DNA of 64,000 nt, taken from assembly GCA_964016885.1 (NCBI GenBank), contig OZ024751.1, positions 20,708,001-20,772,000 on the forward strand. The letters run 5' to 3'. Position numbers and translations under genes: made by a program. Of the stretch, positions 388 to 56,017 are shown in pieces. Every line of letters starts with the position of its first letter. Position 1 is the stretch's first letter. This DNA comes from Eledone cirrhosa (Eukaryota). Under the pieces are notes generated by a model. It was not told the DNA's origin, did not search any database, and saw only the letters and a list, made by a program, of their open reading frames with translations.

Positions 388-577
388 GAAAAAGTATGAC
401 CCCGACAGCAGAGCTCAAGCCGTTTCGACGGCTATTTCAGTCCAGAAATAGCCGTCGAAACGGCTTGAGCTATGCCGTGGGGGTCATACTTTTTCCTATT
501 TCACACTCTACTACTCTAAGTATTGAGTACTCTGGTGCATTATGGTCCATCTGGTTCCTTACCACAATTCCTTTGTT
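388..577 (+). mobile_element. Fold-back element, family E (hairpin 388-495 plus tail), between (TA)n tracts
   Basis: gaaaaagtatgacccc...cggctatttc is inverted to gaaatagccg...ggggtcatactttttc. The tail has GAGTACT at 525-531. Homologous pieces at 301-337, 10389-10448 and 19882-20082. Confidence 0.75.
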
Positions 578-931
578 ATATATATATATATATATGTATA
601 TATATATATATGTATATATATGTATATATGTGTGTGTGTGTGTGTCTGTGCGTATGTGTGTGTCTCTGTGTGTGTGTCTATGTGTGTCTGTGAGTCTTGA
701 GTGTATGTGTGTGTGTCTGTGTGTCTGTGTGTGTCTGTGTCTGTGTGTGTGTGTGTGTGAGTCTGTGTGTGTGTGTCTGTGTCTGTGTGTGTCTGTGTGT
801 GTCTGTGTGTGAGTCTGTGTGTGTGTGTGTGTGTGTGAGTCTGTGTGTGTGTGTCTGTGTCTGTGTGTGTCTGTGTGTGTGTGTGAGTCTGTGTGTCTGT
901 GTCTGTGTGTGTCTGTGTGTGTGTGTGTGTA
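578..931. repeat. (TA)n/(TG)n/(TGTC) compound microsatellite
   Basis: Directly visible. Confidence 0.95.
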
Positions 932-1114
932 CAATGTATATATTCTCCTCGTTCCTATTCAAACAACAGCTACAAACGAGAGCAACTATAAGAACACAAC
1001 GAGAACACGGAAGCTAAACATGGCTGCCTCCTGATACAATACCTAACATGACACGGGGGTGGGGGGCAACATTTGATCAGATGTGAACACAACATCTATT
1101 CTACACCCTATTGT

Positions 1115-2120
1115 GGTTGTAGTGGTAGTGGTGGTGGTCATGGTAGTAGTGGTGGTGGTGGTGGTCTTCGTTATAGTGGTGGTGGTGGTGGTGGCGGTCA
1201 TGGTAGTTGTGGTGGTGGTGGTGGTCTTCGTTATAGTGGTGATGGTGGTGGTGGTAGTAGTTGTAACAGTGGTGGTGGTGGCGGTCATGGTAGTAGTGGT
1301 GGTGGTGGTGGTGGTCTTCGTTATAGTGGTGATGGTGGTGGTGGTAGTAGTTGTAACAGTGGTGGTGGTGGTCATGGTAGTAGTGGTGGTGGTCTTCGTT
1401 ATAGTGGTGATGGTGGTGGTGGTAGTAGTTGTAACAGTGGTGGTGGTGGTGGTCATGGTAGTAGTGGTGGTGGTCTTCGTTATAGTGGTGATGGTGGTGG
1501 TGGTAGTAGTTGTAACAGTGGTGGTGGTGGTGGTCATGGTGGTAGTGGTGGTGGTCTTCGTTATAGTGGTGATGGTGGTGGTGGTAGTAGTTGTAACAGT
1601 GGTGGTGGTGGTGGTCATGGTAGTAGTGGTGGTGGTCTTCGTTATAGTGGTGATGGTGGTGGTGGTAGTAGTTGTAACAGTGGTGGTGGTGGTGGTCATG
1701 GTAGTAGTGGTGGTGGTCTTCGTTATAGTGGTGATGGTGGTGGTGGTGGTGGTGGTGGTGATAGTGCAGGTGTGATGTGGTGGTGGTGGTGGTGGTGGTG
1801 GTGAGAGCGGTGGTGGTGATGGTGGTGGTGATGATAGTGCAGGTGTGATGTGGTGGTAGTGGTGATGTTTGTGATAGTGTTGGTGGTGGTGGTAGTGGTG
1901 ATGTTTGTGATAGTGGCGGTTATGGTGGTGATGGTGATGTTAGTGATAGTGGTGGTGGTTATGGTGGTGGTGGTAGTGGTGGTAGTGGTGATGTTTCTGA
2001 TAGTGGCGGTGGTGGTGGTGATGGTGATGTTAGTGATAGTGGCGGTGGTGGTGGTGGTGCTGGTAGTGCTGATGTTAGTGGTGGTGGTGGTGGTGGTGGT
2101 GGTGGTGGTGGTGGTAGTTT
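1115..2120. repeat. GGT-based minisatellite (~81-bp higher-order unit) grading into degenerate (GGT/GAT)n
   Basis: The unit ggtcatggtagtagt...cttcgttatagtggtgat...tgtaacagt repeats about 7-8 times. Confidence 0.9.
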
Positions 2121-2958
2121 GGTAGCGTTAATGATTAGATTTTTGCTGGTTTCTGGTAGTGTTCTTTGTTGATGATGACGGTGGAGGTGGTGGCGAATTG
2201 CCCCGGGGGCGGAGTGGATCCACACTGATAAGAGGGTCTCTCACAGGTGTAACCAATGTAGTTATTGAATTTAGAGGACAATAGGGCCCCGGCAACAAAG
2301 AAAGGGACTCACAGACAAAAGAAGAACAGCCATAGCTACATCTAATATCAATCTCTCTCTTGCTTCAATCCCTCTCTTTCTCTCTCATTGTTTATTTCTA
2401 TTTATCTTTCTCTTTCTCGTTTTCTTTTTCTGCTATCTGTTTCTCTCTCTCTCTCTCTCTCTCTCTCTCTCTCTCTCTCTCTCTCTCTCTCTCTCTCTCT
2501 CTCTTTGTTTGTATTTCTCTTTCTTTTTCTCGTTTTCCTTTTCTGCTATCTGTTTCTCTCTCTCTCTCTCTCTCTCTCTCTCTCTCTTTGTTTGTATTTC
2601 TCTTTCTTTTTCTCGTTTTCCTTTTCTGCTACCTGTTTCTCTCTCTCTCTCTAAATATATATATATGTATGTATGTGTATGTGTGTGTGTGTGTATGTAT
2701 GTATATGTGTGTGTGTGTGTGTATGTATATATATATATATGTGTGTGTGTGTATGTATGTATGTTTGTTCGTCTCTGTCTCAGTATGTTTATTCCTCTCT
2801 TCCATTTTCTCTCTCTCTCTCTCTCTCTCTCTCTCTCTCTCTCTCTCTCTCTCTCTCTCTCTCTCTCTCTCTCACTCTCTCACTCTCTCACTCTCTCTCT
2901 CTCTATATATATATATATACATATATATATATTTATATATATAATATATATATATATA

Positions 2959-3137
2959 CGAGGGCAATCCCAAAAGTAAGGTCTCCTTCCGATATTGCAA
3001 CTTTTCCGTTTAAAATCCTATGGATGGTGCTTCGGGAAACCTCTCAGGAACCAAAATGCAGAGAACATCCAGAGTGATCCGCCGATCTTTGGGCATGTTT
3101 TCCTCGAAAGGAGACCTTACTTTTGGGATTGCCCTCG
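2959..3137. mobile_element. Mariner-type MITE, 28-bp TIRs, TA target site
   Basis: TA|cgagggcaatcccaaaagtaaggtctcc ... ggagaccttacttttgggattgccctcg|TA. A second right TIR lies at 3328-3355. Confidence 0.85.
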
Positions 3138-53259: not shown

Positions 53260-53476
53260 AACCAAATAAATATATATATTTTAAAAAAAAATAAGACTTC
53301 AGTTGCATTTTCGATTTCATCCCTTTTTCTTTATACTTCCACTCGTGTAGGACACCTCGGTTATTTTTCATTTTGTAAAAAAAACCTCACTTTCTAATAT
53401 ATATATATATATATATATATATATATATATATATATATATATATATATATATATATATATATATATATATATATAT

Positions 53477-53683
53477 AAACGGAAAAAATGAAACGAAATT
53501 TAATTTCCCACTCTTAGTACGGCTGTTACTTAAATATAAGTATTTTTTATTTTTGTACACGTACATACATATATATTTACAGACGTACAGTAGTATGTAC
53601 ATATATATACATACATGCACACATATATGTACGTATGGATTCACCGAACATTTATTATAATGCTCGATGTGTTTGTACATACT
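53477..53683 (-). mobile_element. Family F 3' fragment (no HHR)
   Basis: Reverse homologue of 41120-41317 with the same terminus at (TA)n. Confidence 0.78.
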
Positions 53684-53754
53684 TATATATATATATATAT
53701 ATATATATATATATATATATATATATATATATATATATATATATATATAATATG

Positions 53755-54025
53755 TAGACGTTCTATTTAAATTGTTGGGATACAACAAGCAAATATTTTT
53801 ATAACTGATATAAAGCACTCAACAAATTATTGGAGTAAAAATACGGGAGCTTCCAACAGTAATGGTCGCCTTCTTTAAGGGTATGTCAATATTTATTTAT
53901 AAAACTGCTCTATATTATATTTTATCTGATGAAAGCACACCATAATTTAACTTGGTGTCCTTGAAATATGTATAATGAAATAAATATGGTTTTATAAATA
54001 TAGTTTCCATTTGTTAATATATCGT
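53755..54025. mobile_element. Family A element (reversed tail + forward arm), HHR 53918-53982 (+)
   Basis: Same HHR as 28076; AGCACTC at 53814. Confidence 0.86.
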
Positions 54026-55437
54026 ATATATATATATATATATATATATATATATAAAAATATATGTATGTATATATATATATATATGTGTGCGCGTGCG
54101 TGTGGGTGTGTATGTATGTGTGTGATATTTATGATTGTGTGTGCCTGTATACCTGTGTGGGTTTGTAGGTGTGTGTAAAAGAGTCTGTGTTATGCGTGTG
54201 CATGTGTGTGTGTGTGTGTGTGTAAGCATTTGCGTGAGTAGGTGCGCGTGTGTGTAGGCATGTGTGTGTGTGTGTAAGAATGAATGTACATCGCATTTAT
54301 CTATAAAATACAACTATCAATTAAGATGCTCACAGTGTGTGATGATGATGATGATGATGATGATGGTGATGATGATGGTGATGATGATGATGATGGTGAT
54401 GATGATGGTGGTGGTGATGATGATGATGATAGTTTGAGTAATAATAATGTTGAGAGTGATGGTAATGTGATACATTATAGTAAAGTGTGTGGTACTGATT
54501 ACACAGAAAGGGGAGGTAATACGAAGGCAATACACATACATACACACGCACACACACGCACACATAGACACTCATAAGCGCACACACATACATATATACA
54601 AATAAATGTGTGTGTGGATGTTTATGTTTAAGGAGTGATTTGAAGTTAGCGTTGAAGAGAAAAAAGGTACGAGAGAAGTTGGATTATGTACACACACACA
54701 CACACACAGACGCACACACACTCTCACACACACACACACACACACACACACACACACACACACACACACACACACATATATATATATAGTCAATAAACAT
54801 AGTCATAAACACTGATGTCAAAATCTCAACAAAATCCAGACCAAAAGTGTGTGTGAACAAAAAAGGGTGAGAGAAATATTAAAATAGAAACAAGGGGTCC
54901 GTCGAGCCGTAGATTACAGAGTCGGGTAAGATCAATACAGATCGAACCTTGAGCTGATCAGTGGCGAAACGCGCGTCACCAACCAATAAATGTAATGAAG
55001 GAGCAACCTATCGTCCTTGTTATCTTTTCACTATAATACACTCTATATAGCTCTACACCTCGACACTGAAGTGAACCTAACCATCGAGTGCTCACCCGAG
55101 TGAACCTCCAGTAACTCCAAGTTACACTCCCTATATATATATATATATATTAGATATCAATTTAACAATGAAAAGTTATTTTACCTATTCATATCATTAT
55201 TTTACGATCGTTTCGGAGGGTTGATCATATTGACATATTGACTCATCTATAGCAGTTATATAATTGTATACTATCAGACTTCATATATAGGTTCGATCAG
55301 ACCGTCTTCTTCGCAAACAATAAATTAATATCTAATATCACAATCTGTATCTAAGGAATTATCTCAGCGGAACACGGAACCTTTCTATGGATTTCCCTGG
55401 ATTACTCGCCATCAGATTACATTGAGTTCTATATATA

Positions 55438-56017
55438 TAAAACAACAGAAGGCCAGACTGGAAACTTTAATTTAGAATTTTAATTCCTCGAAAGCACTAT
55501 ACATATTTTGATGGCCCAGCTCTATAATCTGATTATGATGCAAGACTAGGCGATTTCAGCAGAATTATGTAATAGGATTAGGTTGAACTCAAACATAACA
55601 TAGAAGATAGCAGACCGATATAACACCAAATTAGCAGGCTGGCAGGCAGGCTGTCCCCTAATCGAATCGGTCCACTATTTTCTATTTCCTATCTTCTATT
55701 TTTTCTATCTCCTATCATCCATTCTATGTTTGGGTTCAACGTAATCCTGTTACATAATTCTGCAAATTACACCTGATGAAATCGCCTAGTCTAATATGTA
55801 TAGTGCATTCGCAGCATTAAAATTCTAAAGTAAATTTTCCAGTCGGGACTTCTGTTGTTGTTTTAATGAATACTTAACTTCGTTCCTCCACCAACCATTG
55901 GATACCACATCTATGATGGAGGATTTACATAATGTTGAGTGCTTTAATAAATTTGTTGTATCATCGTTGACCAGCCCGAGCCACCGATTCTGTCCATTGT
56001 TAAACAGCTTAACATAA
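55438..56017 (+). mobile_element. Old fold-back element with decayed HHR (arms ~55438-55610 / 55720-55865)
   Basis: Diverged inverted arms; CTGATGA at 55773; GAGTGCT at 55937. Confidence 0.72.

Follow-up and report, generated by a model that had tools for sequence, protein, structure and literature searches.

What sets the one-sided tail of a Penelope-like retrotransposon (PLE), and what is a short conserved motif doing beside it? The question is raised by a 64,000-nt stretch of the Eledone cirrhosa genome (contig OZ024751.1, positions 20,708,001 to 20,772,000; hereafter the window), in which the heptamer GAGYRCT recurs near the tailed end of PLE stubs. The sequences point to an RNA module. 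GAGYRCT appears to form the 3' side of a bulged helix, two copies of which lie in the 5' untranslated region of a full-length element, and each helix copy would be an RNA docking site that starts the reverse transcriptase (RT) about 6 nt upstream, a reading to which we give a probability of roughly 0.7.

The motif and the elements that carry it

The window has a GC content of 35% and consists of microsatellite to 36%; the source genome measures 3.0 Gb. GAGYRCT occurs 27 times on the two strands against 14.2 expected (standard deviation 4.5), a count reached in 1 of 100 shuffles. These matches comprise the 16 heptamers listed in the original prediction, every one correct in position and strand when the window letters were re-read, six mirror reads of the near-palindromic site, two reads, one per strand, of a GAGCACT site at 46920 (-) absent from that list, and three matches away from any tail (16320, 45185 and 63122). 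From the motif end to the next repeat or gap we measured 35-76 nt, in agreement with the claimed distance of about 40-75 nt to the tailed end; the motif is followed by an N gap after 41719, by (CA)n after 18350 and by (TC)n after 25354. The variants assigned to family B at the equivalent place were also found (GAGCCCT at 10271 and 25118, GACCACT at 13583). The 16 listed sites collapse to about 10 families, with five sites from family A. They had been described as unrelated families with unalignable tails. Post-motif tails of 11 families indeed aligned better than shuffled sequence in only 3 of 55 pairs, but the families tested belong to one old clade. Genome-wide, the pattern GAGTGCT-N35-65-(TA)8 gave 30,563 forward matches versus 2,079 for a reversed-pattern control, which is imperfect in that it contains a CpG, and overlaps inflate reverse-strand counts. 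In a 1.264 Mb sample, 156 of the 214 motif matches within 200 nt of a TA edge lay at 30-79 nt from it and three lay nearer.

By their sequence features the window elements are stubs of Hydra-clade PLEs. Typically, an element is a fold-back stub flanked by (TA)n runs; each of its arms holds a CTGANGA..GAAA hammerhead core, and only one side is tailed; (TA)n insertion and pseudo-long-terminal-repeat (pLTR), tandem and inverted layouts are all seen. Longer copies run into an endonuclease with CxCx5C, CxxC and CxH, which are Hydra-clade marks according to the portion of Craig et al. (2021, PMC8557442) drawn on here; other publications are likewise cited from portions of their text. Intact open reading frames (ORFs) of 709-712 aa are present in the genome. 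Loci L321 (710 aa) and L345 (709 aa) each have a single ORF with RWK/RWR at 37, DKT replacing DKG at 114/115, YRDD at 346 and, towards the C-terminus, a GIY-YIG-like domain at 574/583. In the motif-bearing parents the CxCx5C linker and the CxxC and CxH around E and N are present and CCHH is absent, as opposed to the CX2-5CxxC linker plus CCHH of the Neptune/Nematis type; L321 lacks the cysteine pair between the GIY- and YIG-like motifs. A parent ORF was traced for A, F0, B, F23 and F49, among these families plus A2, C, D, F9, F41, F59 and the copies at 18350 and 55937. The hammerhead cores near the 3' end were identified by pattern match and are predicted ribozymes. Many loci from other hosts are 2.3-2.8 kb long, and the tandem period of F0 is about 3.54 kb. 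A Pfam search of the F49 ORF gave no match. The best 150 of 419 Rfam matches held no hammerhead, and assignment to an Rfam family was rejected as these 150 were microsatellite-driven and under gathering scores. A protein search for longer relatives from an endonuclease piece returned no match, and a longer ORF query did find relatives.

GAGYRCT is a mark of the Hydra clade and not of every PLE; it is missing from a Neptune/Nematis-type family of the same window. The window remnant of that family (15878-17817, with two ends; also L072-L100) has an RT piece at 16990-17532 (-), an endonuclease piece at 16353-16910 (-) and a CX4CxxC linker. Separately, full-length F23 copies (L321, L322, L336, L347) carry a 3' hammerhead region, 400-500 nt past the stop, that is unlike their own 5' one; they are possibly subfamily mosaics. 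Hydra PLEs were also found in 17 contigs of bacterial metagenome-assembled genome (MAG) and symbiont assemblies (L304-L320), most likely as host DNA contamination.

One strand of a bulged helix

In the predicted bulged helix, UA-N2-4-RCUC-(stem-loop)-UN-GAGY-RCU, GAGYRCT supplies the 3' strand; RCTC is followed by an inner stem-loop, a 2-nt bulge starting with T, and then GAGY. Eledone families show two matched forms, ACTC/GAGT and GCTC/GAGC. The TC, TT or TA noted ahead of the motif is real and corresponds to the bulge. Conservation of the motif as an element also holds, but the heptamer is only half of the paired structure, and the 5' strand and the upstream TA pad had been missed. Only RCTC-type helices were called, since permissive calls (G-U pairs, long loops) also matched unrelated sites such as 16320. 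Helix 1 is the copy carried by the stubs. The window features are as follows.

9215..9632, +, fold-back stub of family A, taken as the type example: arms inverted at 9218-9544, tail reaching 9632, (TA)n on either side
9443..9484, +, sense-arm hammerhead core CTGATGA..GAAA, predicted by pattern match; mirror copy 9273-9314 (-)
9550..9572, +, helix 1, family A, ACTC-CAAATATTTG-TC-GAGT-GCT; read-through copies continue to helix 2, ATG and a Hydra-type ORF
505..531, +, helix 1, family F0; 5' strand ACTC at 505, and an inner ACTC at 513 pairs too
10966..10988, +, helix 1, family A
10271..10277, +, family B variant GAGCCCT; 5' strand absent from this copy
13541..13589, +, helix 1, family B, GACCACT copy
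18329..18356, +, helix 1, ACTC-TGCTCT-GTA-AGAGCA-TA-GAGT-GCT
19928..19954, -, helix 1, F0-related family
22116..22144, +, helix 1, family C, degenerate 5' strand ATTC; the family representative has ACTC
25077..25124, +, helix 1, family B, GCTC ... TC-GAGC-CCT; intact 709-aa parent ORF in L345
25354..25396, -, helix 1, family D, long inner insertion
25889..25912, -, helix 1, family A2, a relative of A
28340..28361, +, helix 1, F9, variant GAGTACC, absent from the earlier list
41719..41781, -, helix 1, F59, long inner insertion; tail meets the N gap
44810..44816, +, family A motif; a small deletion removed the 5' strand in this copy
46920..46943, -, helix 1, F23, GCTC-TGT..ACA-TA-GAGC-ACT, absent from the earlier list; intact 710-aa parent ORF in L321
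47253..47275, -, helix 1, F49, 1-nt bulge; tandem parent copies L212 and L213
47503..47525, -, helix 1, family A
47965..47992, -, helix 1, family C (ACTT/GAGT)
53814..53836, -, helix 1, family A
55050..55092, +, helix 1, F41 (GCTC/GAGT)
55877..55943, +, tentative helix 1, ACTT/GAGT, 56-nt inner part; single copy

Pairing was assessed in a comparison set of 94 Hydra-type loci (66 clusters) from metagenome and MAG contigs. The 59 loci in 44 clusters with at least 110 nt ahead of an ATG entered the untranslated region (UTR) analysis. The 5' strand was picked regardless of pairing, and an upstream CTC was present at 76 of 85 anchors. At a bulge size of 2 nt the first inner pair was present in 68 of 73 cases, compared with 5/76, 5/76, 8/67 and 22/63 at sizes of 0, 1, 3 and 4; the bulge opened with T in 74 of 76. 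For the first inner pair the pairing was further counted by type. It was a Watson-Crick pair in 65 of 73, where permutations gave 36 on average. A protein tree was built from 50 sequences of this analysis, with no named published references among them and a median identity of 47%. On this tree the first inner pair of helix 1 was Watson-Crick in 33 of 33 (22 T-A, 11 C-G) and changed in six steps per side, all six of them joint (T-A to C-G or back); the outer pair was G-C in 31 and A-T in 2. We infer that the helix forms in RNA.

The inner part of the helix ranges from 6 to more than 100 nt. This variability and the compensatory pairs are unsuited to a fixed-spacing duplex motif, and they bear on the proposal that the signal acts in DNA, as a downstream promoter element of the pLTR or an endonuclease recognition site. 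Precedents exist in Drosophila virilis Penelope, for which the part of PMC2377424 consulted describes an internal promoter with initiator-like and downstream-promoter-element-like parts, and for which endonuclease cleavage required the tail, as reported in PMC11167929. The Hydra-type insertions go into (TA)n and not at the motif, and we consider a DNA-level signal improbable. Three further candidates were rejected. A splice site would lose its GT in the GAGC variants and has no constant YAG ahead of the motif; coding constraint does not apply to a motif in the UTR, 12-104 nt ahead of the ATG; and a palindromic dimer signal would leave GAGCACT, the most frequent form, with two C-A mismatches.

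Other shapes of the helix were also observed. In Eledone, helix 2 often has an inner insertion of 60-110 nt (L212, L213, L321, L341), and it is compact in other hosts. A hammerhead family, F91/F63 (from the sample of C11, C4 and C24), has GTTC-TGCA..TGCA-TA-GAAC 7 nt past its short end, in which the outer stem is changed on both sides. The Neptune/Nematis-type family has a helix of the same shape in other letters, GTTT-CAA..TTG-CT-AAAC, at 17764, 5 nt past its short end, and a related family has GTTT-CGA..TCG-CA-AAAC.

Two copies per element, one insertion end ahead of each

Within the 200 nt ahead of the ATG, exact motifs occurred at least twice in 28 of 44 other-host lineages, once in 9 and not at all in 7. 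Two motifs were found by chance in 0 of 380 ORF windows and 0 of 4,400 shuffles. The two are 54-82 nt apart. The prediction that a second helix lies past the tailed end was borne out in read-through copies of families A and F0. A second GAGYRCT was present beyond the tailed end at 12 of 12 family A loci and 11 of 12 F0 loci, at a constant offset, and 19 of 20 downstream ORFs matched a Hydra-type protein; the search pattern demanded RCTCY, whose presence is thus by construction, which is not so for GAGYRCT, the offset or the ORF. By eye, the helix can also be seen in the published consensus sequences Hydra-2_Amil, Hydra-1_Ajap (twice) and Hydra-2_Ajap, and as variants in Hydra-1_Crog, from coral, sea cucumber and sea louse; the Hydra-1_Amil consensus stops short of a tail. 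A comparable search past the long end of the Neptune/Nematis-type family for a second GTTT helix gave 124 mixed matches, flank-like in the 100 listed, and no read-through family.

TA-flanked insertion ends were then placed on seven Eledone references. Of 221 ends, 175 lay 3-10 nt ahead of a helix, 87 at helix 1 and 88 at helix 2; a wider bracket of -3 to 14 nt held 214, with seven elsewhere. Each reference offered 19-43 TA steps, yet the ends were fixed ahead of the helices. TA occurred within -9 to -3 of 58 of 60 helices, with a peak at -6, against a background of 39%. The motif is thereby tied to insertion ends, as expected of the conserved cis element that the original prediction proposed for PLE ends, and of the functions suggested there the best fit is a signal fixing the 3' end or an internal priming site, and a downstream promoter element is a poor match. 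In other hosts, 46 loci carried both copies; 12 were tandem read-throughs, 14 ended at the contig end and 20 were flanked, with 13 of these 20 ending 0-11 nt ahead of a helix.

Among 113 opposite-strand end pairs, both ends were at a helix position in 103, and all 103 of these classifiable fold-backs paired a long with a short end, with no long-long and no short-short case. Independent ends would give half long plus short; 5 of the 103 come from the non-Hydra family, the Neptune/Nematis type, whose fold-backs were long plus short in 5 of 5. Because one fold-back end falls before each helix, what is called the PLE tail is the inter-helix spacer, and helix 1 is the only helix in it. The constant distance is the roughly 6 nt from an end to the helix on its 3' side, at each helix; the predicted fixed place at 40-75 nt was right as a distance, but it reflects the variable spacing to a second helix that is missing from the stubs.

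The fixed offset on both sides suggests that the hairpins tell the RT where to start. The helices could alternatively direct an RNA cut about 6 nt upstream, the RT beginning at ordinary RNA 3' ends and not internally. The same offsets would be expected, and RNA-seq read ends were noted at the RT start sites of the Poseidon_Ac element PAc (Frangieh et al., 2024, PMC11167929, from the portion consulted). A cut at helix 1 would lose helix 2, however, so that 103 long-plus-short outcomes in 103 would need two differently cut RNAs every time, and PAc begins internally on uncut RNA in vitro according to the same source. We regard an RNA cut as unlikely. Nor do we favour a 5' UTR translation element, cap-independent after hammerhead cleavage or serving feedback repression by the element's own protein, with ends that merely follow nearby TA-rich sequence. 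Such a role would suit the position of the helix downstream of the hammerhead in tandem copies, as well as the last motif (helix 2), which lies 12-39 nt ahead of the ATG in 32 of 37 lineages. It leaves unexplained the fixed ends among so many TA steps, the TA peak at -6 and the long-plus-short rule, and as a sole function it has a low probability, about that of an RNA cut; a dual role in priming and translation is possible.

Several observations besides this proximity to the ATG weigh against helices that start RT. The exact motif is missing from 7 of the 44 lineages, and inspection of Hydra-1_Obim by eye found no such helix at its 5' end. Seven of the 20 flanked other-host ends are off-helix or lack a called helix, 10 of the 113 end pairs have one end at neither helix site, and the long tandem copy L213 appears short at both ends. 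Both outer strands are nearly invariant, so there is no covariation over most of the stem; helix 2 often has only five pairs, with a Watson-Crick second inner pair in 13 of 30; and wobble versus mismatch counts leave the pairing strand undecided. GAGTGCT was also outside the top 30 of a crude de-replicated 7-mer ranking, which was uninformative; families had been merged by single linkage, and the motif is spelt in several ways. That ranking, with the collapse of the 16 window sites to about 10 families, could speak for chance or for recent shared descent of a few families. The motif is kept at a median of 47% protein identity, in unalignable UTRs and twice per element, and the helix was seen in coral, sea cucumber and sea louse elements; this explanation, to which we assign next to no probability, is already refuted by the duplication, the end mapping and the covariation.

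From the module, its duplication, the covariation, the fixed offset of both ends and the long-plus-short ends, all of them observed, we infer a possible course of insertion. A read-through RNA from a tandem unit would bear both helices, and the RT-endonuclease would bind both, probably with one subunit on each. Each cut (TA)n strand would then anneal to the UA pad ahead of one helix, and cDNA synthesis would proceed away from the helix, giving the short end from helix 1 and the tailed end from helix 2. One use per helix in every insertion would suit a dimer bound to a single RNA. We put forward only tentatively, at somewhat under even odds, the full version in which two tandem helices on one RNA load the subunits of a PLE dimer and prime both (TA)n strands, other clades having the same geometry in other letters.

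Other repeats were observed in and around the window. A hammerhead family without GAGYRCT (12621-13374, 40719-41314, 53478-53683) has a long microsatellite-like tail and its CTGAYGA core on the strand opposite the AT-rich end. Neptune-type elements (L127-L140 in C20, and the C14 sample; families F36/F40, F27/F51) lack a hammerhead core and have in common a short GTG..CAC-CTC hairpin in a 35-60 nt tail. An abundant repeat of about 200 nt (4357-5686, 9876-10081, 16788-17008, 22432-22774, 34829-35264, 43653-43852, 49474-49675) has the look of a short interspersed nuclear element (SINE) and is similar to cephalopod SINEs. At 61376-62332 a 64-nt unit forms a tandem array with about 98% identity.

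Relation to known systems

The elements share with the Hydra clade, as set out in the consulted part of PMC8557442, RWK/RWR, DKT, CxCx5C, CxxC and CxH, the lack of CCHH, the hammerhead, the (TA)n target, the inverted truncated copy and the one-sided tail. That clade is described there as generally under 3 kb with tails of 30-40 nt, whereas Eledone tails are about 65-95 nt and the tandem period of one family is about 3.5 kb. The words hairpin and stem-loop are absent from the main text of PMC8557442, the consulted part of which does not describe the twin helix, and hairpin is absent from the portions consulted of PMC7229834 and PMC4209133. No account of the twin helix came up in a literature search, which did not extend to the majority of subscription papers or to Repbase notes. 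Thus, to the extent of these sources, the Hydra clade and its one-sided tail are known (PMC8557442), and the twin-helix cis element is new within a known family.

PAc (PMC11167929), as far as the consulted text goes, is alike in having two internal RT starts that bound the tail, an AT-rich target, a need for RNA 3' of the start in vitro and a dimer predicted by modelling. It differs in belonging to another clade and in starting inside the ORF, in an AC-rich stem-loop, and a repeated conserved helix is not reported in that text. In diversity-generating retroelements (DGRs), structured flanking RNA beside the template likewise serves the cDNA start (bioRxiv 10.1101/2023.10.23.563531, in part).

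Hepatitis B epsilon and the telomerase RNA boundary element are further structured RNAs beside a template that are needed for, or position, the start of cDNA. Compared with the DGR, epsilon and telomerase RNAs, the PLE helix is present in two copies, sits 3' of the base that is copied first and is used with cut genomic DNA as primer; the likeness is by analogy. The first in vitro study had left open what determines the PLE tail and the pair of internal RT starts, and the candidate offered here is a module of 20-30 nt that is conserved in several animal phyla and lies about 6 nt from either end. If the proposed mechanism is true, a single design accounts for a tail on one side, the inverted truncated copy and the targeting of microsatellites. 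With PLE enzymes as the sister group of telomerase, their way of choosing where to start on a template has a bearing on how RNA-guided template choice arose. A start signal that is portable could be of help in programming target-primed insertion, and the module can class tens of thousands of copies in the Eledone genome.

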